From Vermamoeba vermiformis (lineage: Eukaryota): DNA of 64,000 nt. The notes under the pieces are model-generated. The model ran no database searches, was not told the origin of the DNA, and saw nothing but the letters and a program-made list of their open reading frames with translations. This document shows, piece by piece, positions 6,900 to 52,992 of this stretch; within the stretch, counting starts at the first letter, position 1, and the number at the start of each line of letters is the position of its first letter. Location of the stretch: positions 62,001 to 126,000 of the forward strand of contig JBEWZL010000076.1 in assembly GCA_045837725.1 (NCBI GenBank). The letters run 5' to 3'. A program made the position numbers and the translations under genes.

Positions 6900-9800
6900 T
6901 TAACTACGATCACTCATTTTACTGGCAATCTCGTTAATGAATCTGTTGGAGGCGTCATTGAGCTTCATGCCCCTGGCTGATTCCAACAAATGCAGCGCTA
7001 AAATGTACAACTGCTCGCCACCGTGACCTTGCAAGAGTTGGAGTGCCGTATGACAGACGACTAACAATTGGCAAATGACATATTCTCTAGGCCCCTCCGA
7101 GTGCTGCTCGATATGCTGTTCAATAGCGTTAATAACTCATTACCAAATTAGGAAATGTGCTTACCTCCGCGAGTGAAACAAATGTTCTGATCACGTGTGA
7201 AAAGTCGCTTGAAAGTGCCATGCTAGCACTTGCTTCATCGTTATCAAACACTGCAATGATTCGCAATATGAAGCATAACGATAATATATCCAATTCGATG
7301 TCCTCGTGCTTGACTGCTTCGCCCAAAGTCTCACGGAACAGATCCGATCCGAGCTTTAACAGATCTTTCTCCATTAGTCGCACGAACAATTCGTGCAGGA
7401 CCAAGAGCTCTTTTGAAGTGCAGTACGGTATCACGTGCATAGTTGCCAAAAATAGATATTGTGGGAATAGATTTGGCTGCAAATAATCCAACGCTGTCGA
7501 GTCACCACTTGCCAAGGCTGTTGTAAGATTGGTATCATATGATTTGACCTCAATATCGTCTTCTTCATCTTCTCTCGCCAAGGCCTCATCAGCACTACGC
7601 TTGGCCTCCATAAGCATCTATTGGTAGAGTTAAAAATTGGACCGGATCTGGCCATCTTGCATAGTTTTTTTGACTTACGACAAACAGATCTGAATAGACC
7701 GGCGATGATATAGCTGCCAATAACATATCAATAAGGCTCTTAATAACATCTATAGGATGTTGTGGCTGCTGTTGTTGTGTCTCTGACGGATAATTCAACC
7801 GATCCACTCGCTCACTAAGCCCAGGACACTGCTGCTTAGTTGATTCTAGCAAATCCAGCTGCGTGAGTCTGGTGCACCACGCTGTATAATAAAACATTAA
7901 TATACATATATTATATTATATTTGAATCTAAAATTTTAAAGATCTTGTCGTCGCGTACTGGATCTTTTGAACAACGAAATTTTTGGGCCCAATGTGAATT
8001 AACGATATGATAACTATAATACATACTAATAGACTCGCAGTTGATGAGATATTGCTCGATGACTTCCTTCAGATCTTCTTTTGGCTTGAGATTGTTGGTC
8101 AAGTACGCCAAGCAGTTGCTCACGCTTTCTATTATTGTATAATTAAATGAACTCTGATTCGTGGCATTATCGGCATCTCTTTCGTGCGTTTCATCGTTTC
8201 TGGCCGACAGTTGTTGAATTCCAATGTGTCTGTTACGATACACATCCAACAACTTCATCAGATCTGACAAAACGCTCCAAACTGAGTCGGTATTCATCCA
8301 CTCTATGATAAATATTAGCATATAGCTTCAGGATGTCGATTTAAAGGGTACCTTTGAGCGGGTCTGCCTCAATAAATGCAGCCAAAATCTTCAGATCGAA
8401 CACGAGGGCGACATCGTTCTTATGGGCCATATTTGTTCGGATAGCGTTGGATAATAAATCGAATAGTCTATTGACGTCCAAGACTCCGCTGTTCTGATTG
8501 GCCAGAATGAGCGAAATAAAATTGATAAAATTCATCGCATGATTTGGATGCTGAACAACTTCGCTCTTGTTCATCTTGGCAGCTAATTCTTGGACTAATA
8601 GTGATGTACCTGGTATGTAATAAAGCGTCAGTATTAATTTCATTATAAGTCGAATTATCAAATGAAGCAGAATCACTGAAAAGTACGGATGGGATCCGCC
8701 AGTACAAGTTCACTACACTAAAGCTGAATGATTGTACAGTTATTTATATATGTACTTACCATCAGGAAGAGCGAATCTAGAAGCCGATCTTGCGAGCTGT
8801 AGCATTTGTAATAAGAGATCTGCTTGACCTTTGTGCTTGATCGCCTCATCGATAATTTTCGCAATGAATTGGCTTGGAATAGCCGCACAATACTAAATAA
8901 ACAATGCATTAGTATACTGCAATTAATATAATACGAGTGATTGACCTACTTTGTACACGGATGCGATTATATTTTTGTCTTCAAAGCTCTGCGGTACTAA
9001 TTGATTGAATAACGGTACGAGTTCTGATTCGATCTTCGATTTGATCTCTTGATCATTGCCTAATATAGTAATCAAACCCCTACGAAATTAGATGTAAGTT
9101 AATTGTAACAAGAAAATTGAAGTTCATGAACTTACTTGTCGCTATTCTTAGCATCATTTAATATGAGATTGATCATATCCTCTTTATGCTCTGCATTTGT
9201 AACGCCCATTAATATATTTATCGTCATTTTTCTGAATTGGGATTGCAGCGGATCGCGCATCTTGGCATAATTAGCAACAATGAACTTGGTCAAATTAACT
9301 GCCAGTTCATTAATGTAATTCTTTTCGTTTTCTCCTATGATCTCAAGCCACGCTGCCTCGTTCATGAATCTATCGTCCAATAACAAATTCAACGCATTTT
9401 TCCTCGTATTTTCGTTGCCACTTTTGCTCTCAGTGATTAAGCGCAGCAACTTATTCTCCAGTGAATATTGACTGCTATCTATCATCTTGACGATATGTCC
9501 ACCGACTCTACAATAACAGTTGTTAATAAAATATGAAAAAAAGTCACTTCGCGTACCGTCCTCGTAATGAACTTTTCAAACTCTGCCGTTCAGTGAACGC
9601 GTTAAGTAATGTATCAACAATGTCTTCTAGGCCATTATAATGACCTTGTGCTATTTTTTCTCGAATACTATGTAACAGAGTACCAACGGCATCGCTCAAA
9701 GGTAACAGATCTGGCGGAAAAGATTTCAGCAGCTCTACTATTTTTGGAACTAATGACACCAAATAATCACGTGATACTTCATACTCGATCGATTGGAGTT

Positions 9801-16444: not shown

Positions 16445-17150
16445 TTCAATATTATCGATAAATAATAATAATGATTATTGCAATAAAATATTCAAATGCA
16501 CACTAGGTGTTTCGGTGCTAGTATTATGCAAATAGTTATGTGCTATTATTACAAGTGGTTACTAGAATTAGTTTCTGATTACGAAAGTTTTTTTGTGAAG
16601 CGCGTGAACAGAACAAAACCACAACGTAAACTTTTCGCGCGCATTTTTCTGAATTCAAACTAAACATCAAATAATTGAGCAACAATTCATATTGTACTTT
16701 AAATTTGATACACATGTGCCGATAATCAATCAAATAGTCAATGCGGCACATCTAATCCTGAAGATTCGAGAGTATCTTAACTTTATAAGATTGCATTTCT
16801 TTGATTATCAATAAGTATACTAACGAGATAATAATGACTTTCGCGAGTCAATAAACATGCAGCTCGTAATTATACGGCAAGGCAAGTTTAAATCTGTCAG
16901 ATTCCATCGTGCTTGTATGCGACTAAAGTTTCAAATCGAATCTTATTAGATTCTAATACTGTCACCATTAACCTATCGACGATGCTTAACGAATTAAAGC
17001 CCTGCTCTTGCTAGCCGTTTCCCCGCCCGCCACCACGATTTGACCGTTACTTTGTCGCTGCGCCAGAAATAATTTTTTGGCTGGAAAGAAATTCACCGCG
17101 TCGTTACGGCATTTTTACACGTTATTCGTACATTAGACCACAAGCAAACA

Positions 17151-17846
17151 ATGCCTGCTAGCCCAAAGAAAGCTACCAAGACGGCTCGCAAGAAGTCGAA
17201 GAAGCCGCGCGATTATCCCAAGTATGAGCAAATGATTGCCGAAGCTATCACTGCGCTCAAGGATCGCACTGGCTCATCTAGATACGCCATCCACAAATAC
17301 ATTGTAAACAACTACACCGTGCCTATGAAGACTCTCGATACACAGTTGAGCATTCAATTGAGAAATCTCGTCAGCAACGGCAAGTTGGTCAAGGAGAAGG
17401 CTTCGTATCTCTTGTCGAACGCGTTCAAAGAGTCGCTCAAGACCGGTGTCCCCATGCCCGTTAAGAGAGCTAGCCCTAAGAAACGCGCTGCTGCTACAAA
17501 GAAGAAGGTTGAGTCTGAATCCGCTTCGGCTGAAGAGAAGATGGAGACCGAAGAAGCTAAGCCCGCCGAAAAGAAGACTCCCAAGAAGGCTGCTCCCAAG
17601 AAGGAAGAGAAGGCCGTCGAGGAGAAGAAGACTCCCGTTAAGAAGACGCCAAAGAAGGAAGCTGCAACTCCCAAGAAGAGCCCCGCCAAAACAGATTCGC
17701 CAAAGAAGACCCCTGCTAAGACTTCTAAGAAGGAGACCGCGACTCCGAAGAAGGCTTCACCGAGCAAAGCTTCACCTAAGAAAACTCCTGCTAAGACTCC
17801 CAAGAAGACTCCTTCTAAAACGCCCAAGAAGTCCGCGAAGAAATAA
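17151..17846 (+). CDS. H1: Linker histone H1, intronless
   Basis: Globular domain YPKYEQMIAEAITALKDRTGSSRYAIHKYI...LVSNGKLV and a Lys/Pro/Ala-rich tail with many S/TPKK motifs. Confidence 0.95.
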   Translation: MPASPKKATKTARKKSKKPRDYPKYEQMIAEAITALKDRTGSSRYAIHKYIVNNYTVPMKTLDTQLSIQLRNLVSNGKLVKEKASYLLSNAFKESLKTGVPMPVKRASPKKRAAATKKKVESESASAEEKMETEEAKPAEKKTPKKAAPKKEEKAVEEKKTPVKKTPKKEAATPKKSPAKTDSPKKTPAKTSKKETATPKKASPSKASPKKTPAKTPKKTPSKTPKKSAKK

Positions 17847-19923: not shown

Positions 19924-21504
19924 TTAAGAAACGCTAATATGCGTTTGTTGGGCTTCTTGCGCACGTCTCTTTTTCGCTTCACGTTGCGCTCGGTACTCAG
20001 GCTTGCTGCGCTTATCAACGACGTAATATTGCTTGGCGAGTGTTTTTCTCATCTTTTCATTCTCTTCTCTGACGGTCTTGTAGATACACTTGGCAATAAA
20101 GTACATCAAAAATGCAATGCCAACGACCTGTTCAATGAAGCAAGGTGAGCCACGTGATCATTCATAGAGGGTCCTATTTATATGACTACTAGTACTTACG
20201 ACGATGACCACGAGCAATAACTTTCCACAGTCTTTCTTGCAATCAGTGTCAGATCTGCTCGACGAAGATGAGCCACCGCCACCACCTCCGCCACCGCCAT
20301 TACTACGACCTCTCTAGCGAAGTATATATCATTAGCAAATCGATTTATTATGCCATAATGCGCAAGACTTACTGGGAATGGCAACCACAAGAACGGATCG
20401 TTCCAATAAAAGAACGATCTTCTGTGCGGGTTGTGATTGAGCGGTTGATTCCATCGATATCGACCACCGCCGTGCTCAAAGTCATCGTTGTCGTGCGGAT
20501 CCATGTTGTTATTATTGTTATTCTGTGGCTCTAACGGCTGTCCTTCATTGCCTAGTCTTCGTCCTCGACGTCGTTGATCGTTTCCTATCATAATCATTAG
20601 TACCCCAATACTACATAACGAAATTTAGGTATCGAAAGTACGCACCAGTCCACCACAAATAAATGCCTCGACCAATCGCGTAAAGGCCTACGATAGCTAG
20701 AAACACTACAAATCCATGGACCATGTGGTCTCCTATCCATGTGAATGCCTAAACAAGGAGTCAATGGTGCGTACCAAGTTTAAACAACAGATCCACTTAC
20801 GTGATCGCTGTTTGGCCAATAATAATGCTTAAAGCACATTGTTTCGTATTTTGCAATATAGCACATAATAAGTTTATACACATAGCCGCTGACGAAAGTG
20901 GCTACTAGCATCTTCCAAAATAAGTCCCACACGACCCAGGCGATCGCAACACCCATCGATGAGTAACGACCAATGCCTCGGTATTCTGTCTAATAACAAT
21001 AATATTAGTAACGGGGCATCGTCCTGGAACTAATATTCAAGTTTGTAAGCTCGAACAAATATTATTCTTTTTTGAATTTGAAAAGGCCAACAAAGCGCCA
21101 TATGGCAAGTACCGAGCCGTAATAATAATAATAGTAATAAAATCATCAAATAAATACAAATGCTAAATTAATTAATAACTCGTCAGAAATGCTGACTCAG
21201 CAATTTGCTCTCAAAAAATTATTAAATATTCAAAAAAAGCTATTTTACTTGCCTCGTAGGCAGCATGGCATACAGGACAATGAGTGAGATTTTTTGGATT
21301 TATTCCTGAGCTTCTCCTAAGCAGATTCAATTTCGTAAGTACGCGTTTTAATTGTTGTATTGCGCAAAATACTATGACTTACCACCCATCCAGACATTCT
21401 CTATGAACATATTTTATACTACCAATACAATTGCATGGGACAATCATGTTAACCTTGTCTTCTGCATCAAGGCAGATTCGACACGTCACCGGTGAGTCAG
21501 CCAT
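19924..21504 (-). CDS. RING-CH (MARCH-like) membrane E3 ubiquitin ligase
   Basis: CRICLD...PCNCIGSIKYVHRECLDGW...CPVC (C4HC3) followed by hydrophobic TM exons; the 3' end is approximate. Confidence 0.88.
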
Positions 21505-21958
21505 TGTGCTCAAAGTAATAATGTCTTTGAAATAATGGTGCGCGCGTAAAGATGCACATGGAGCCAACCGAGAGCACGTGGTGAGATTCTTGATCTGAAA
21601 TTTTGTCCGTTTTGGCATTTTTCCGAGCCTGCTTGCTTTCAAGTCTCCTGATGAACTCTAAATCTATCTTAATGACGTTTTTGTATTAATATGTATTAAT
21701 TGTGCATCTTTAGAGCCTCTTACAAAAAGCAAGAATTGAATCTGCTCGCTGAACGAAGATGCATTGGTACTATTGACAAGCTATCTTTCCGTGCATAACT
21801 TGCTCAGCTTATCAACGAACATGCAACTATCAATATGTATACTTAGGACCAGTAGGTACTTCAATTACGTACCAGAGTTTGAAGATCAATGTGATCTTTA
21901 TTGTCTGATCTTTTTATACATCATTAAAATTGCATCTTAATGCGCGTTTGCCTTGCAA

Positions 21959-23063
21959 TCACTTCACACCAAGTGTCTCGTGTTTGCAAGTCGAAGTTTC
22001 CTCCGGACCACACCACGCAGGTTGGCCACCGTATGGTCGAAATGTAAATAGAGCCAACAAGTCACCAATCTGTTCTTTGATGTGCGCATTGTTCGGGTGA
22101 TCGTACATCTGCTTGGTGAATCTCCAGCATGCATTGTGACAGTCAAGGTACCAAGGGGACAATGGTCGGTAGATACCCCAGTACATCATTCCAATCATAT
22201 ACGGAAGCGTTTCCACCATAATATAGTAGCATACGAAGTCATCGCTATTGACTTTGAGCAGCAGGTATGCCTCTAAACCAAGTCGACTGAGTGGCTCGAG
22301 TACGGGTAGATTGTCGGGAGATTCTTTCTTGCAACGATACATCACCACTCGTCGTTCAATAAAAGGATAAAATCTCGCAGAGATCGAGTCGAACAAAAGT
22401 GCGAGTTGATGTTGATGTTGCGTTGATGCAAAAAGGATCCACTTCGTCCCTGTGAGGATGAAGTTGCGTTTGAGCATTTCAATTGCATTCTGCTGGTCAG
22501 CGTTGAACGAGCTGAAATTTCGCGATTCGACGGTGCAAACATACTCGCAGCCCATGACGAGCTCGTTCGCTCCTGGAGGGGTGCTGAACCGGAGCTCGTC
22601 GTTCTCCGATTTTACGACTCTGTTGACGCAAGTAGGGACCAATGCTTCAGAACCTCCAACAATAATCATTACATTTCTCGGACAGGCAAGAAATTTCTTG
22701 AGTTGCGCGCTGTCGTCGTAGAGGTGGAGCACGATGGCGCGTTCAGTTCCGTCAGGCATTCTTTTGAGCCACGCGATGCCGCTCATCTTGTCTTCGAATC
22801 TCGCTTGTTCAAGGGCAGCTCGAATTGTTGGCAGAAGATTTTGATGACTTCGATGCAGCCAGATCATGCCGAGACCACGACGAAGACGACTTTAAAAATA
22901 ATGGTGAGTGAACTGAATATGAGTCCAAATAGATTAAACGTTATAAAAATAGAATAATTTAATATTAAGGTTGGCAATAAGTCAAATATTTCGTTCTGAT
23001 AGCTCCAAAGAGCTTGACTTACGTCGCCTCCTGAATAATTCGTTCCAACCATTCGCCACTCAT
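21959..23063 (-). CDS. Orphan family paralog 1 (most divergent), 2 exons
   Basis: Exon 1 MSGEWLERIIQEAT, then RLRRGLGMIWLH...; shares WLKxMPDGT, STPP, ESR, KKESP and HPNN motifs with paralogs 2-4. Confidence 0.8.
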
Positions 23064-24341
23064 TGCGTAACGCTATTCTGTTCGCTTGTTCGATGTTGTA
23101 TGAACTATGACGTACATTTCGGCGAATTTTTATGCGACGCATCGTTCATGAACGAAAAGTCACGTGCTGTTGACCAAGTTTGACCGTATTATTGGGCGCA
23201 CTATGCAAGTACAACGCTCTCGAGATCCTTGCTCTGCATTGTAACTACGCGTATTTAGATATTGACTGCCTGGTAGTAATGAGGCTGGAAGCTTTGCTCG
23301 TGTAGTTGAGTGTTGATCCACACATCCAGCGCACGGACAGAGCTTTGTGCAACTCTAATGCAGCCTATTGACAGTGTTAATAACAACATTGAAGCACTTG
23401 AAGAGTTCCAAAGTCGGTCAACTCACCTTCGATGTTGTTGTGGCGGAGACTGATCAAGCAATTGCAGGCCAACATCCGCAGCAAAAATCGGACCGTCCGA
23501 ACCACAAGCGTATTTAATTTTTGAATATTTTTGTGTAAATGCCACTTCGATTAATTTACAAGAAATAATATCACGATAATTAAACGAGTTAGGCGTTGCG
23601 ACCCCAGATTTAATTTGAAAAAATTAATGAAACTATGAAACTGACCAATGCACGATAAAAGACTGGTATTACCTCGTGCAATCGATGTAAAATATACGGG
23701 AGAACATGTATTCGGCTGAATTAATGAGATGTGGGGGTATGCTTGCTTCAGAAGGAACAACACAGTACCTCAACTTGAGAGCTTACAATGCTGTTCAATA
23801 TGATGAATTGCAATACGTACATTACAAATACACTCGTGGTCGTCATTTCAAGTTTTCAGTTTTGAATAATCAATGATTGATTTTTTTGGCCGTTGCTCCG
23901 CTGATCGAACAAAAATCAAACTTGGTTTGTGCGAACCTTTTGTGACTAGAACTCACGATCCAGTTAACACAACACATGTGATGCTATTATCATGTACGAA
24001 ACTTGTTTCTGAAAGCACGTAAATGAGTTGCAGGTTGACTTTCTTTCGCGGATTTGAAGCAGCAACTCACTCGCGAAGTTTGGGAGCCTTGTGTGAGTGT
24101 CTAAATAATTTTAAATGTATCCATACGTGTGCGCAAACCTATCTTATAATGGAAATCGATCTCTGACGACTACAAGGTGAGTTTAAAATTATTGAAAAAT
24201 ATTTGTTCTCAATCCGCACGACGCAGGGCTCGAGGAGCCTCGCCGACAATCTTTCTGACGTATAATAATAGCAATATATTAATGGCAAATATTATTCAGA
24301 AGAACCTATTTGTGAGAACTCTGTTCATCAGTTTGGTTTGC

Positions 24342-24474
24342 AACATTCGACACGTGATTTTATTTCCCTTATTTGGACAATTATTTCATTACCCGCAAAA
24401 GGAGTTATCATAAAAACACTCGATTCCAAAGTGAACATCAATCAACACCAAGCAGCAGCACTCCTCACTCGTTC
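24342..24474 (+). repeat. Duplicated upstream module (AACATTC..CACGTGA..TATTTGGACAATTAT) of paralog 2
   Basis: Near-identical to the reverse complement of 28295-28427; related copies at 26870-26939 and 25613-25671. Confidence 0.9.
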
Positions 24475-25584
24475 ATGAAGCGCATGCATGCAGAAGCGTT
24501 TGATGACCATCAAGTGAGTTCAAACAAGCGTGTGAGAACCGAACAAACAGCTCATGCTTGGTTGAGAAAGATTGCGATGGGTTCAAAGTAAGTAAGCTAA
24601 AGAAGTGAACATTTGCCGCTGTGGCCTGTGTCGGACAAATGTATATTCATCGTTTTCGTTACTAAGTCTATTCTTATTTACATACGAAGCCCTCGCGTCG
24701 GTCTTGGCATTATTTGGCTTCACCTTAACGACCAACACCTTCTTCCCACACTTCAAGCGGCCATCGCTCAAGCAGGATTTGTCGACATTGCGTGTGGCTA
24801 TATGTGGCTCAAAACGATGCCCGATGGAACTCAACGAGCAGTCCAACTCTACGTATTCGAAGATGAGGACAGTGAAGTCTTGGAAGACACACTCGCGTTT
24901 GGCAACACCATTGTGATCATGCATGGCAACGAGTCTCAGAGCCGACCAAGTGTGATTCATGCCATACTTGATGCAGGACGCAATAACACCCCGTTTTGGC
25001 TCAGCACTCCTCCAGACACTGATGGACCAGTGATGCGATGTGAACTCATTTACAACATCGAGTCACGTTCATATGGCCAGTTCAACGAGAATCAAATAAG
25101 TATTATTATCAATCGAATGATCCTCAACCACTGCGCGCATTCACAATACCTGATCATCGCCTCGCAGCACCATCAACATCAACTCGGCATGCTGATCGAC
25201 AATATTACATCGGATTATTATCCTGGTGTCGACAAGCGATTGTTTTGGCTTAAATTCAAGAAAGAATCTCCCGTTGATCTCCCCGTACTCGAAACACTGA
25301 CGCGACTTGGTCTTGCCGGAGATATGTTGCTACAACTATCCAATGCTAATGCAATATACTACTACGTAATTCTGGACGCAGTGCCTGGACTGATTGCTCG
25401 GCTCTTTCCTGCTGTGTTCAGTTCACTCGCACCTTGGTACGTGGCTTCTCATAGAGCAGGTTTCGTGGATATCGAACAGCTGCACAATCATCCGAATAAT
25501 CATCACGCAAAAGAGGCCATACGAGAAGTCATGAAATTGATGAAGCGGAGCAGATCTTACGGTCTAACAACAGAAAAATGGTAG
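24475..25584 (+). CDS. Orphan family paralog 2, 2 exons
   Basis: Exon 1 MKRMHAEAFDDHQVSSNKRVRTEQTAHAWLRKIAMGS, a GTAAGT..AG intron, then NPRVGLGIIWLH... open to the stop at 25584. Confidence 0.85.
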
Positions 25585-25612
25585 TAATTCCCTTTACTAT
25601 ATAAATACAGTT

Positions 25613-25671
25613 GGCACGTACGTGACTTTATTTCCCCGATTTGAACAATTATGTAATTATCCATAAAGGAG
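25613..25671 (+). repeat. Orphan, degenerate copy of the family upstream module with no gene behind it
   Basis: GGCACGTACGTGACTTTATTTCCCCGATTTGAACAATTATG...AAAGGAG aligns with 24349-24404. Confidence 0.7.
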
Positions 25672-25717
25672 ATCCTTGATTGGATGCGTGAGCAGTTAAA
25701 GCGCATCGAGATGCCTG

Positions 25718-26803
25718 CTAAATGATATTAATACCGTAAGATTTGCTCATCTGCTTAAGCTTCATCAGCTCTCGTATGGCTTCTTTGATGTGCTGATTGT
25801 ACGGGTGATTGTACTGCCGTTCGAGATGCAAGAAGCCTGCTTGGTGTGCGTCAATGTACCAAGGCGAGAGTGAACTGTGTACGGCGGGAAAGAACTCGGC
25901 GACGAATGCTGCTATTACATCTAGAACCACGTAGTAGTACGTAGATTTGTCGTCAGACAGTTTGAGCAAAACATCTCCTGACAGACCAAGACGCGTCAGT
26001 GGTTCGAGTACGGGGAGATCAACGGGAGATTCTTTCTTGAATTCGTATTGAAACAATCGCTTGTCAATGCCTGGATAGTAGTCCGATGTAATATTATCAA
26101 TCAGCATGCCGAGTTGATGTTGATGGTGCTGCGAGGCGATGATCAGGTATTGTGAATGTGAGAGCAAGTTCGTCCTCATTAATTCCAATACACCTTTTTG
26201 ATTGTCGCTAAATTGATCATATGAACGTGACTCGATGTTGTAAACAAGCTCGCATCGCATCACTGGCCCCTCAGAGTCTGGAGGAGTGCTGAGCCACATC
26301 GAAGTGTTCTTGCCTGTAAAGCCCGTGATATTTTGAATGACGCTCGGTTGAACTTGAGACTCGTTGCCTTGCATGATCACAATAGTGTTGCCAAACGCAA
26401 TCTTGTCTTCAATAATTTCTTCAAGGTCATCGTCTGTCATACCGAACAAAATAAGTGATCGTTGTGTTCCATCGGGCATTGTTTTGAGCCACACAACCTG
26501 GTTTGCTACATTTACGAACCCCGCTTGAGCAATTGCTGCCCACAACGTTGGAACCAAGCTGAAGACTTCTTGATGCAACCATACAATTCCAATTCCAACA
26601 CGGGGACTAATGAACACTTAGTAAGGGGTGAATTTCTAAACAAAAGCAGATCTGCAAGTGTGCAGTGCAATTCTCTGGTAATCAGCTTACTTTGAGCCCA
26701 TTGCAATTTTTCTCAGCCAAGCATGCGCTGTTTGTTCAGTTCTCACGCGCTTGTTCGAACCCACTAGATGGTCTTCGGTTGCTTCTGCATGTATGCGCTT
26801 CAT
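25718..26803 (-). CDS. Orphan family paralog 3, 2 exons (alternative upstream ATG at 26869)
   Basis: Exon 1 MKRIHAEATEDHLVGSNKRVRTEQTAHAWLRKIAMGS; exon 2 is homologous to the other paralogs throughout. Confidence 0.85.
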
Positions 26804-27171
26804 GACTGGAGGCGTGTGGGAGTACTGTTGTATTAACGTTTGCTTTGGAGTAAAGTATTGTTGACACATAATTCTCCTTTTGTATTTATGGACCCAAATA
26901 ATTGCCCAAATAAGGAAATTTAGTCACGTGCAGAATGTTTGACTAAGTAAGACGAGATTTAACATTTGTTTTTGACTGAACGAATGTACAATCACTCGAA
27001 CGACATGCACGGGAAAGTGATGACTCTGTTCGAGGCCAGTAGTTGCGGTGGGACGTTGAATTCGTAGGAGATTGGATTTCATTGCAAAAACGGTCGATAT
27101 TATCCTGCAAACTCACATTCAATTTGAATATCCCGCATTGTTTAATTACATCAATCCTTGGCATACAATAA

Positions 27172-28294
27172 TTAAGCGATGTTGATACCGTAACACCTGC
27201 TGAGCTTGCGGAGCTTCATAAGTTCTCGTATAGCCTCTTTTGCGTGATGATTATTCGGATGATTGTACAGCCGTTCGAGATCCAAAAAACATCCTTTGTA
27301 AGAGCCCGCGTACCAAGGTGCTAATGAACTGAATACGCTTGGACAGAACCGAGCGATTAATGCTGGCACTGCATCTAGAACCACGTAGTAGTACGTATAA
27401 TTGTTGTTCGATAGTTTGAGCAAAATATCGCCAGAAAGACCGAGACGACTCAGTGGTTCATGAACAGCGAGATCAACGGGAGATTCTTTCTTGAACACGT
27501 GCCGATACAATCGTTTGTCAATGCCTGGATAGCACTCCGTTGAAATATTATCGATGAGATTGGCGAGTTGCTGTTGATGGTGCTGCGAGGCAATGATGAG
27601 GTATTGAGAATGCGTGTAATAGTTGACTAACATGCGATTGATGACACTTTGCTGACTCTCGTTGAACTGGCCATATGAACGTGACTCGATGTTGTAAATG
27701 AGTTCACATCGCATCACTGGTCCGTCAGTGTCTGGAGGAGTGCTGAGCCACAACGAGGTGTTATTGTCTCCGATGTCAAGCACTGAATGGATGACACTTG
27801 GTCCGCTCTGAGACTCGTTGCCATGCATGATCACAATGGTGTTGCTGTAAGCGAGTGTAATCTCCACCAGCTCCGTGTCCGTATTTTCGAATACGTAAAG
27901 TTGGACTGCTCGTTGAGTTCCATCGGGCATCGTTTTGAGCCATAAATGGCCAGGCACAATATCAACGAACCCTGCTTGAGCGATGGCCGCTTGAAGTGTG
28001 GGTAATAAGTGAAGGACGTCACTATACAACCATACAATTACAAGGCCTACACGAGGACTTTAATGAATAAACGAGATTAGTTCAAGATAAATAAACAAGG
28101 TCAGTGAATGATAAACAATAATTATTATTCAATTGGACGCAGACCAAAAAAATGTTTCGTGCGTGTATTTAATCAGCTTACTTTGAGCCCATCGCAATCT
28201 CTCTCAGCCACGTACGAGCTGTTTGTTCGGTGCTCACGCGCTTGTTCGAACCCACTTGATGGTCTTCGAAAGCTTCCGCGTACATGCGCTTCAT
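27172..28294 (-). CDS. Orphan family paralog 4, 2 exons
   Basis: Exon 1 MKRMYAEAFEDHQVGSNKRVSTEQTARTWLREIAMGS; exon 2 PRVGLVIVWLY... to the stop at 27172. Confidence 0.85.
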
Positions 28295-28427
28295 GAACGA
28301 GTGAGGAGTGCTGCTGCTTGGTGTTGATTAATGTTCACTTTGGAATCGAGTACTTTTATGATAACTCCTTTTGCGGGTCATGAAATAATTGTCCAAATAA
28401 GGGAAATAAAATCACGTGCCGAATGTT
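28295..28427 (-). repeat. Upstream module of paralog 4, an inverted near-identical copy of 24342-24474
   Basis: Base-by-base comparison shows only a few substitutions. Confidence 0.9.
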
Positions 28428-28658
28428 TGACGACCTTAAGAACACGTCTAAGCAATGTATAAATTCAAATGTGTATATATAAAGATTGTTTGTTTATAAA
28501 AATTAGAGAGACTTTATTATTTTTTTATTCTCAAGAGCATTAATCATCAATCTGCGCCCAGTGTTCTAGCAATTAGGTTGTAGCTTCTGAATAGAGTGGG
28601 AAAATTTGTAATGTAGGGAAGTGTGGGAGGCGAAAAAAAAATAATCCCTGGATCTTCC

Positions 28659-29667
28659 CTACAGATTTGAGTTGGATGTGGCATCGCTCTTTTCGTTGGT
28701 ATTGTTGGCACTATCAGTAGTGTTATCATTAAGCTCTTTAACGGCATTATACACGAGCAATATCTCGCTGTCTGCATCGTCAATCATCTTTTGCAAAAAT
28801 TCTTTTGCCTGTCAAAACAGATCTCGCTTAGTACGCGTTAAAATAAATAGATTGTAAAATCGATATAAATATGCAATATTAATGACTGATATTATCAGAG
28901 ACTTACGTCATCGTTATCGAATGGCGCTGGCTTGGATCGAACAGAATCAAAAACGTAAAGTAGCCCGTTCATTTTCCTAGCCGAGATCCAATGACGTGAT
29001 TTCCACAAGCCCATGAACTTGGATGATTTGTAGTTTAATATTAGACCGAATATAGTGTTCAGATCCAGATCTTTGGTCGCTAGAAGAAATAGAAAAAAAA
29101 TTAATTCAACAGATCGAGGCAATCGTTCGTATGGTTGAAATTTGATTTTAAAATAATAGTAGTACTATAAAAATTAATATAATAGTATTGGAGCTTACAT
29201 TTCCTCTTGTCAAACCATTTTACTTCAAAGCCTTGATCTTCGATCGCTTTAATCAGGACATTTGCGTCGTAATTTCCCAAGCCCCTATGATATATCAAAT
29301 TAATACGGTCATAATAACTATAATATAACTTACAAAACGCTTTTGTGAGGATTTATCCACGCGTTAGAAAATGAATTCGCAATTGCATCCAGGTCTTTGG
29401 CAGTGTATATTTTTTTTTGCAACTGAAATATTATTAATCACGTGCTATAATACGGTGTTTGTGAACCATAATCAGGAAAAATTATTTGATTTCAAAAATA
29501 TTATTTTTTGGATGTTTACTTGACATCCACGAAATGAATTGTTTTATGGCCATTCAGTTAATGTAATTTACCAAATTATTAATGGCGTGCATAGCACATC
29601 GTTGTAAGCTTTGTTTTTCGTGGTAGAATTGGATCTCCTTTGAATTATTCTTGTCTTTCTTCTCCAT
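28659..29667 (-). CDS. Josephin-domain deubiquitinase (JOSD-like)
   Basis: FYHEKQSLQRCAMHAINNL, INPHKSVLGLGNYDANVL, SRHWIS, VFDS; the Cys-His-Asp triad is intact. Confidence 0.95.
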
Positions 29668-51339: not shown

Positions 51340-51479
51340 ATTGCCAAAAATAGTTTTTCTTTCAAACTTAAACCACGAGCCAACACTACTGCTCGTTACT
51401 GTATATTCTTTTTTCTAGCTAGTTCATTTAACTTCTTTCAATCGTTGCGATCATTTTTGCAGTGGTGTCGAATCTAATC

Positions 51480-52992
51480 ATGACATCGAGAAAAGAGAGA
51501 GAGAGAAAACGGACGACCTTTGAAACTTTAGAAACAATTATTGGTGCTGTCAACCCTGCATCCCCTGCGAACTTGGCGTGTTTCTCGTTCATCGCCAAGT
51601 GGAGAGAGATCCAGACTGCCAAAACTGTCTCTGAAATTCAATCCTTGCTCACTCTCGCTCTGGCCTGTGTGGTTATCGATGGCGAAATATTGGAGAGCTC
51701 AACGGTCCCTACTGACGCCGAGAAAGTCTCGATTTTCTTGGATATCTCAGATTTTGAATCCGAGTTGGCGGCTGGCTTTCGCGAGAATGGTCATCTCGAT
51801 AGCTTCAAGGCCACTGTAGCTCCACTCATTGCTTCTGGCGTGCAACCAGTACGTCCAGTCCGTAACCTTAACCAAAGGGTTGATAGCGTAGATCCGTCGC
51901 GCCTCCAGTCGTTACGTCAACAGGACCCTGACACCTATACCGCCATCACTCAGTACGCACCAAGACAGCGAGTTGCCCCGCCAGCGCCGGCAGTGCAACC
52001 ACCGCCTCGGCGATTCGTCTCGGAACCCCTCTCCGGCATCACTCAGCCAAAGGCCACGCCTCTTGTGTTCGCTACGCCCGTCTCAACTGATCCCTTGAAC
52101 ACGACATCAGTCTACCTGCCACGTTTCTTCACGAGTTATCGTGATTTCGAGACCGGTCGATTGCCTAGCAACTTTCAGGAGTACTCCGTGGCCTCACATA
52201 ACATTATGCCACTCTTGCAGGCCGAACAACCGTCCTTCAGCATTACAGACTACATTGCGTACCTGGCGTACATCGCAGGCATGACATCTAACCAGTCTCA
52301 TGGAGTTCGATGAGGCCTTCAGGGCTGGCGTCGCGGTCGGTTTGTACACCTGGAAAACGAACGCAACATCGTTGGAACGCATCAAGTTGGTTTATCGGGC
52401 CCCTGATTGTGAGACCTATAAATCAGAGTCCGGCGCTACCGTCAGAAAGGTTCCCCGCAAGTCCAGCAACCCTTGCGACAATTGGAACACCGATGGCAAT
52501 TGCCGTCACGCGCGTCGCCCTGGAGGCTGCAAGTACAGGCATGTCTGTGCAAAGTGCTACAGTACCGACCACTACATGGCAATAGGACACCCCGACGAGC
52601 AGTTGATCCTCTTCGGATCAGCTCCAAAGGTCAGTGCAAAGCGACGAAAAGTACAAAGGCCATTGGACCAAGCGCCTGAAGAAACTACCTTGCCCCATCC
52701 TGTTCCTCAAGGTAGTGAGACAGCTGGGCCCGAAAAAGACCAATTGTTGAAAGAAACTGAAAAACCGAATCCAGTACAAACAGATGAGGCAGAGAACAGA
52801 GCCTACCATGGCATGTCTTACTTAACAGGAAAACACAACTGCTCCATCAGTGCCACCGGATACTGCGAATACATTTTCAAAGCTCCAAATGGCAGCGAGA
52901 TCCACTGGTCAGAAGGGCGCGCACACTACATTCAAGCTCACAACCTAACAACCAAAGAATTCCTCGATTTTATGATGAATTCTGATAAATAA
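51480..52992 (+). mobile_element. DIRS/Ngaro-like tyrosine-recombinase retrotransposon gag remnant (frameshifted ORFs 51480-52313 and 52300-52992); no RT or YR in the window
   Basis: Intronless and GC-richer than the flanks; YLAYIAGM...EFDEAFR and CDNWN..GNC..C.YRH.C..C...DH, a tandem zinc-finger motif typical of DIRS/Ngaro ORF1. Confidence 0.65.

Follow-up and report, generated by a model that had tools for sequence, protein, structure and literature searches.

We examined a 64-kb stretch of eukaryotic DNA with ~40% G+C (Vermamoeba vermiformis contig JBEWZL010000076.1, positions 62,001 to 126,000; hereafter the window, in whose coordinates all positions are given), which carries a cluster of four paralogous genes, g1 to g4. 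The cluster contains four long open frames, at 21959-22891(-), 24601-25584(+), 25718-26617(-) and 27172-28059(-), whose mutual matches in tblastn searches against the entire window have E values of 1e-63 to 1e-148; these searches revealed exactly four full copies of the family together with one weak C-terminal relic. Spliced products without internal stops were obtained for g1 (323 aa), g2 (335 aa), g3 (333 aa) and g4 (332 aa), with introns of 84-133 nt bounded by GT...AG that interrupt the genes at a common phase-2 position, right before (P/R)R(V/R)G(L/I). These models, of 323-335 aa, bear out the four two-exon genes (orientations -, +, -, -) with a common intron position that an initial annotation of this DNA had proposed between 21959 and 28427. 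Relative to g2, the identity of the products is 73% for g4, 65% for g3 and 38% for g1.

The divergent paralogue g1 (36-38% identical to the other three) comprises exon 2 at 21959-22889(-), a 133-nt intron at 22890-23022(-) and a short exon 1 at 23023-23063(-) that encodes MSGEWLERIIQEA plus 2 nt, and its spliced model translates without a stop. The first exon of g2 (24475-24587(+), MKRMHAEAFDDHQVSSNKRVRTEQTAHAWLRKIAMGS plus 2 nt) bears a KRVR basic patch and is followed by a 102-nt intron of the form GTAAGT...AG at 24588-24689(+) and by exon 2 at 24690-25584(+). Tail-to-tail with g2, across a gap of 133 nt, lies g3, with exon 2 at 25718-26606(-), an 84-nt intron at 26607-26690(-) and exon 1, opening with MKRIHAEATEDHLVGSNKRVRTEQ, at 26691-26803(-). 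The corresponding parts of g4 are exon 2 at 27172-28057(-), a 124-nt intron at 28058-28181(-) and exon 1, opening with MKRMYAEAFEDHQVGSNKRVSTEQ, at 28182-28294(-). All four introns are of the GT-AG type and in phase 2, and the coordinates of each exon 2 include the stop codon. The motifs WLKxMPDGT, STPP, hESR, QxQL, KKESP, LxRLGL, LxPWY and HPxN, which the initial annotation listed as surviving in the most divergent copy, are all retained in g1 when the proteins are aligned (8/8).

Exon 1 encodes SNKRVRTEQ in g2 and g3 and SNKRVSTEQ in g4, so that the NKRVR/NKRVS-type first exon noted earlier in three genes corresponds to KRVR in g2 and g3 and to KRVS in g4. The classical nuclear-localisation pattern is K-(K/R)-x-(K/R), to which the KRVR patch conforms, and the motif lends weak support to a probable nuclear targeting of g2, g3 and perhaps g4 through the exon-1 peptide; this putative function would have been lost in g1. 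In the homologous upstream frame of g1, SNKRTE runs into a TAG stop, and the basic segment is missing from the g1 protein. A relic of this segment lies at 23073-23117(-), where MYVIVHTTSNKRTE precedes the TAG in frame with exon 1 in the upstream translation. Because the TAG interrupts the homologous SNKRTE frame, g1 can start only at a later ATG (MSGEWLERIIQEAT), and the first ATG past the in-frame stop is the putative start adopted in our model.

Selection, promoters and probable gene conversion

Pairwise comparison of exon 2 among g2, g3 and g4, which the initial annotation had proposed as a check, gave ratios of nonsynonymous to synonymous divergence (dN/dS) of 0.27-0.35, far from 1. The corresponding dS was 0.56-0.93 and was saturated in comparisons with g1; these values are averages, because identity is patchy along the genes, in tracts resembling gene conversion. 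In global alignments the introns and 3' flanks are 46-52% identical, exon 2 is 72-79% and exon 1 85-86% identical, and the 180 nt upstream of g2 and g4 are 83% identical. Since the gene models have clean GT-AG introns, dN/dS is low, the introns have decayed relative to the conserved exons and promoters, and orthologues exist in a second genome (see below), we conclude that g1-g4 are real genes under purifying selection.

The four paralogues are co-regulated. Upstream of g1 there is a promoter-type motif, CACGTGACT, at 23158-23166(-). The promoter and 5' leader of g2 (24342-24474(+)) contain CACGTGATT (24351-24359) and ATTTCCCTTATTTGGACAATTATTT (24362-24386), the promoter element of g3 (26896-26930(-)) consists of CACGTGACT plus AATTTCCTTATTTGGGCAATTATTT, and the promoter and 5' leader of g4 (28295-28427(-)) belong to an inverted pair with g2 that includes exon 1 and is 92% identical over 251 nt (24342-24592 versus 28177-28427). 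The window contains 12 copies of the motif CACGTGAYT, where shuffles predict 0.91, at positions 9765, 9935, 23158, 24351, 26922, 28410, 29436, 40851, 41008, 41244, 49682 and 50880; upstream of each of g1-g4 there is a copy, as there is upstream of a Josephin-like gene and of others. The motif is probably not specific to the family but a feature of promoters in general in this organism, an E-box/G-box-type palindrome with its flank.

Two tracts of 92-98% nucleotide identity (25138-25245 versus 26051-26158, and the inverted g2/g4 pair) stand out against 72-79% in the remainder, and synonymous sites within them are almost all the same. Codons 191-210 of g2 and g3, for example, are 98% identical, with the same synonymous third position in 19/20, whereas in codons 41-60 the synonymous third positions agree in just 2/12. 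Gene conversion between paralogues is the likely cause of these tracts. A degenerate frame at 26963-27064(+), in which ERMYNHSNDMHGK aligns with ERLYNHPNNHHAK of g4, matches g4 weakly (tblastn, ~26972-27052(+), E 0.054) and lies tail-to-tail with it, a layout that mirrors that of g2 and g3. Judged on this resemblance it is probably what remains of the C-terminal end of a fifth copy, since deleted, and it suggests birth-and-death turnover of the family. The cluster as a whole may have originated through old tandem and inverted duplications, with patchy gene conversion later.

Distribution of the family

Two protein searches, one word-indexed over 5.8 billion proteins and the other an exhaustive phmmer search over 1.84 billion representatives, together returned ~10 proteins, all of them fragments or close kin. 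There were seven phmmer matches at E <= 1e-3, and the word-indexed search, which took g2 and the family profile as queries and also looked for longer forms, yielded only P0001-3, P0005, P0008 and P0009; no longer or fused forms were found in it, which is weak evidence of their absence. The 2962-aa repeat protein P0007, one of the seven phmmer matches and matched in 10 stretches, was discarded as spurious. Each of the four genes has a one-to-one orthologue in a related genome: P0005 is 97.6% identical to g1 over 209 aa, P0001 94.1% identical to g2 over 255 aa, P0002 90.3% identical to g3 over 288 aa and P0003 94.6% identical to g4 over 202 aa, and in a tree each of these proteins pairs with its own paralogue. 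Because every copy has its own orthologue there, the four-fold duplication is older than the split from the related genome. More distant members (P0004, of 314 aa and ~35% identity, P0006, P0008 and P0011) lie on small contigs, and scans of contigs from prokaryotic genomes, JGI metagenomes and IMG/VR viruses revealed no relatives. The family is restricted to one lineage of microbial eukaryotes, and its expansion is old, not rapid; the rapid local expansion supposed in the initial annotation is contradicted by the paralogue dS given above and by the separate orthologue of each copy.

Two of these orthologues are irregular. On a 4.4-kb contig of the related genome, the first 50 residues of P0005 match the antisense of the g2 intron region (window 22588/24590-24717), and because of this match ~2 kb would be missing between g1 and g2 in that genome. 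P0003 ends in g3-like sequence read out of frame (window 25768-25890). These anomalies reflect either real rearrangement and decay or misassembly of paralogues. With other orphan tandem gene families of protists the present family has in common a narrow distribution, a mixed-orientation cluster, gene-conversion tracts and a pseudogene fragment, but it differs from young, fast-evolving orphan clusters in that its copies are old and clearly under purifying selection.

Predicted fold and putative pocket

At the level of sequence the family remains an orphan. Pfam gave a credible match for none of the four window proteins, and Pfam, NCBIfam, PHROGs and PADLOC gave none for any of the 11 family members, in keeping with the initial annotation, which had recognised no family. 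Only sub-threshold noise was obtained, in which we include FANCA_CTD (E 0.018), and the sole PADLOC match was to DpdG (E 0.049, in 1/11 members).

Two AlphaFold2 models were generated, both from an 11-sequence alignment. Model 1 (exon 2 of g2) has a mean predicted local distance difference test score (pLDDT) of 67.2 and a predicted template modelling score (pTM) of 0.62, and is laid out as an N-terminal sandwich to ~residue 181, followed by a beta/alpha region and terminal helices. Its first elements, over residues 4-79, run beta-alpha-beta-beta-beta-alpha-beta, an order that parallels the secondary structure of E. coli MtnN over its first 79 residues. Foldseek searches of model 1 against the PDB gave 16 matches at E <= 1e-3 (best E 1.1e-4, template modelling scores 0.26-0.42), and those listed are all NP-I proteins, namely uridine phosphorylase, MTA/SAH nucleosidase (MTAN), futalosine hydrolase and PNP. 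In BFVD an uncharacterised pithovirus protein ranks first (E 1.5e-3), ahead of giant-virus nucleoside phosphorylases, which are the best matches to bear a name (weak E values of 1.6e-3 and 7.6e-3). The highest Z scores in VIA are those of pyroglutamyl peptidase I (PGP-I; 9.7 and 10.0, root-mean-square deviation 3.4-3.5, 146-152 of ~205 residues aligned); because PGP-I and MTAN lie within 0.1 Z of each other, this result points to a fold class rather than to a family. NP-I families share a phosphorylase/hydrolase-like three-layer fold, and of the assignments available for the predicted structure the best is an alpha/beta/alpha domain of phosphorylase/hydrolase-like type, to which we give about even odds. 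Under this assignment a domain of ~180 residues would adopt a three-layer alpha/beta/alpha fold of the class that includes NP-I phosphorylases, MTA nucleosidases and pyroglutamyl peptidase I, and the C-terminal part would form a beta/alpha region of ~115 residues with helices at its end.

Membership of the family in NP-I or in peptidase C15 is not shown by these results. Set against NP-I (PNP_UDP_1, PF01048; for example Chlamydia CT263, 4QAQ, E. coli MtnN, 1NC1, and the uridine and purine nucleoside phosphorylases), the family shows no similarity in sequence or profile, appears to lack ~70 residues of the NP-I core or to have a disordered loop in their place (model residues 95-122), and carries an extra C-terminal region of ~115 residues; its conserved residues are His, Gln, Ser, Cys and Glu, whereas NP-I has a Glu/Asp set. 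PGP-I (MEROPS C15; 2EBJ, 4HPS, 1AUG) heads the VIA ranking of model 1, and the family likewise has a conserved Cys and His. The catalytic triad of PGP-I is Glu-Cys-His, to which C118 and H162, by their order and spacing relative to the strands, are no obvious fit, and the family lacks a Pfam match.

Conservation was read from the 11-sequence alignment, with residues numbered as in exon 2 of g2. H162 is invariant across members that are only 28-37% identical, and M116, C118, S126, R127, S159, Q163, Q165, L166, L169, I173, R184, E193, P195, L207 and L209 are nearly invariant. In model 1 the conserved polar residues occupy the ends of strands 123-128, 154-158 and 183-191 and the beginning of helix 163-175, along the sheet edge on which enzymes of this fold class, such as MTAN and PGP-I, have their active sites. 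Because conserved polar residues gather at strand ends and helix starts, we infer a small-molecule-binding or hydrolytic pocket. Its substrate would most likely be a nucleoside or nucleotide, or a peptide or amide bond, and its residue set is unlike that of described families; the model lends weak support to catalysis and to such a substrate. The catalytic residues of MTAN are E12, E174 and D197, which we located in the E. coli MtnN sequence, and we claim no catalytic equivalence because two registers onto MtnN are possible by hand.

Taken as a whole, our reading is that g1-g4 are functional, selected, co-regulated and lineage-restricted paralogues that contain a phosphorylase/hydrolase-like domain with a putative pocket, and we put its probability at roughly 40%. 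Several results weigh against it. The fold assignment is not robust, as model 2, made for P0004 (pLDDT 68.2, pTM 0.66, residues 89-144 disordered), does not reproduce the NP-I ranking of model 1: Foldseek against the PDB gave nothing at E <= 1e-3 for it, and EF-G, phosphoglycerate dehydrogenase and NikR headed the list. PF01048 and Peptidase_C15 were matched in Pfam at E <= 10 by 0/11 members, PF01048 at E <= 1 by 0/4 of the window proteins, and hhalign gave probabilities of 0.04% against E. coli MtnN, 0.03% against DeoD and 0.34% against Udp. Its best local pieces, which are not significant, speak for the reading in that they place TIVIMHGNES on the strand-plus-G-S-x-G loop of MtnN and DeoD. 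A PDB profile search returned a SusD homologue as its sole match (E 0.15), which was dismissed, as were ESM Atlas look-ups that pointed to ANF_receptor (0.84) and Cas8c (0.89), these being unrelated, sub-threshold and inconsistent. The KRVR patch is a match of four residues, altered to KRVS in g4.

Expression data form part of the same side of the balance. RNA-seq reads from three runs of the same species label (two samples, one study; ~38.9 million records) were mapped at a cut-off of 95%, and no RNA reads fell in any of the 28 bins (0/28) that span 21554-28665. All 15 mapped reads lie in two flanking bins, in a RING-variant gene and a Josephin-like gene, and because every one of them is only 95-99% alike, the RNA comes from a different strain. 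The test is a weak one, since the strain differs and the cut-off is 95%, so that reads of these faster-evolving genes, whose orthologues are 90-98% identical at the amino-acid level, may fail it; the null result weakly suggests low expression at most. An index of sequencing runs listed no RNA run as containing this stretch. The DNA runs that it listed carry the same organism label, or are water, wastewater, aquifer and canine metagenomes with small shares of the sampled words, and are uninformative on habitat.

Genomic context

The neighbours of the cluster are ordinary cellular genes, encoding a major vault protein, UDP-glucose dehydrogenase, a linker histone, a RING-variant protein, a cyclin, Ras-family GTPases, a leucine-rich repeat protein, a 2-oxoglutarate oxygenase, arginyl-tRNA synthetase, fimbrin and a Josephin-like protein. 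A scan of 77 window ORFs turned up no transposon or viral genes, and tRNA and Rfam scans of the window found nothing. The cluster is flanked at 21382-21657(-) by an exon for a RING-variant (MARCH-type) E3 (Pfam RINGv, E 1.5e-11) and at 28898-29164(-) by a Josephin-domain exon (E 1.1e-5), whose 25.8 bits fall just short of the cut-off of 26; that two ubiquitin-system genes flank it is probably a coincidence.

Elsewhere in the window, a single-exon linker histone H1 gene at 17073-17843(+) has a long Lys/Pro/Ala-rich tail, and because of this biased composition long spurious ORFs arise there in other frames, antisense ones included. At 51432-52989(+) there are two long adjacent or overlapping frames of 293 and 235 aa without a Pfam match, the second of which is Cys/His-rich with C-x-C-x-H patterns.

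Alternative interpretations

The alternative that we take most seriously, although we still think it less than likely, is that the family is a lineage-specific nuclear adaptor or regulator built on a non-catalytic alpha/beta scaffold or binding module, such as a Rossmann-like or flavodoxin-like sandwich, in which the conserved residues serve folding or a protein-protein interface. An invariant His with nearly invariant Cys, Ser, Arg, Gln and Glu at 28-37% identity is more typical of a ligand-binding or active site, and the Foldseek matches listed for model 1 are uniformly NP-I. The PD-(D/E)xK nuclease core of the initial annotation, in which the Asp would come from D-G-P-V and the equivalent of (D/E)xK from h-E-S-R, we consider extremely improbable. 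What the family has in common with that superfamily is only a local strand-strand-helix-strand pattern, a beta/beta/helix/beta run near residues 115-158 whose strands bear polar residues, and nuclear targeting would fit a nuclease; the motif residues, however, are not conserved. The candidate Asp, D112, is N/E in g1, is absent from P0004 and sits in a low-confidence loop of model 1 (residues 112-119, pLDDT < 50), the candidate Glu, E125 of 'ESR', is also not conserved (Ile or Ser in P0004, depending on the register), and the position of the Lys is occupied by Arg. No restriction-endonuclease-like chain is among the matches listed in five PDB fold searches of the moderate models (pLDDT 67-68), and Pfam nuclease families were matched at E <= 10 by 0/11 members. 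The initial annotation itself held that an unrelated fold would bear on the fold idea alone, and it is only that idea which the listed matches count against: they point to another fold, although absence from such a list does not by itself exclude this one.

A viral origin, also raised in the initial annotation, or more broadly descent from a virus or mobile element, or a state of decay without expression in which recent duplication alone preserves the copies, could draw on the lack of RNA reads on the four genes in three runs, on the loss of the N-terminal segment of g1 to a stop codon and on the fragment of a fifth copy. It is very hard to reconcile with the low dN/dS, with four intact frames that all have orthologues in a second genome, with promoters that are conserved where introns have decayed, and with G+C at third codon positions of 0.47-0.53 in g1-g4, within the 0.36-0.72 of neighbouring genes; no relatives appeared in scans of IMG/VR or in PHROGs, and no gene of transposon or viral type was seen in the window ORFs scanned. 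Neither base composition nor the IMG/VR scans, which found no viral relative, support the proposal of viral origin.

Also unlikely, if somewhat less so, is that the genes are immune or conflict effectors mechanistically related to the Cap17/DtcC-type ATP nucleosidases and expanded under viral or bacterial pressure. The Cap17/DtcC-type enzymes are domains of PNP fold whose cleavage of ATP takes place during infection, and such domains are also present in eukaryotic innate-immunity proteins. PNP-domain effectors have been described in eukaryotic proteins of immune type (bioRxiv 10.1101/2023.01.24.525353). The nucleosidases and phosphorylases that head the Foldseek matches of model 1 agree with such a role, as do the multiple copies and the signs of birth and death (the relic at 26963-27064 and, in the related genome, orthologues that may be broken). 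The resemblance to these systems lies in a fold that may be of PNP type and in the presence of several copies in a microbial eukaryote. The eukaryotic set, however, was defined there by a PF01048 match at E <= 0.01 over at least 100 residues (bioRxiv 10.1101/2023.01.24.525353), which 0/11 members provide. The Cap17/DtcC proteins and their eukaryotic homologues are recognised by PF01048 and usually have fused or adjacent sensors (bioRxiv 10.1101/2023.01.24.525353), and the present family shows neither, the search for sensor fusions being weak evidence. No relevant PADLOC model was matched, the cluster lies among ordinary cellular genes, purifying selection acts on duplicates that are old, and the fold is uncertain.

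A bolder extension of our own reading would make the family an unrecognised, sequence-orphan branch of the phosphorylase/hydrolase-like fold with a new His/Glu/Cys/Ser pocket and with three of the four copies in the nucleus. Such an enzyme would cleave nucleosides, nucleotides or amides, its duplication in this protist lineage would have served defence or stress signalling, and it would be a eukaryotic counterpart, missed by PF01048, to the immune effectors of PNP type. We offer it as speculation, with the odds well against it.

Significance

At present, g1-g4 constitute a well-documented cluster that is old, selected and taxonomically restricted, and that is useful for annotating this genome and those of its relatives, with the general picture unchanged. 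If the predicted fold and pocket are true, the phosphorylase/hydrolase-like fold class would gain a branch undetected by any profile, and the family would provide a candidate nuclear small-molecule hydrolase in a free-living protist.

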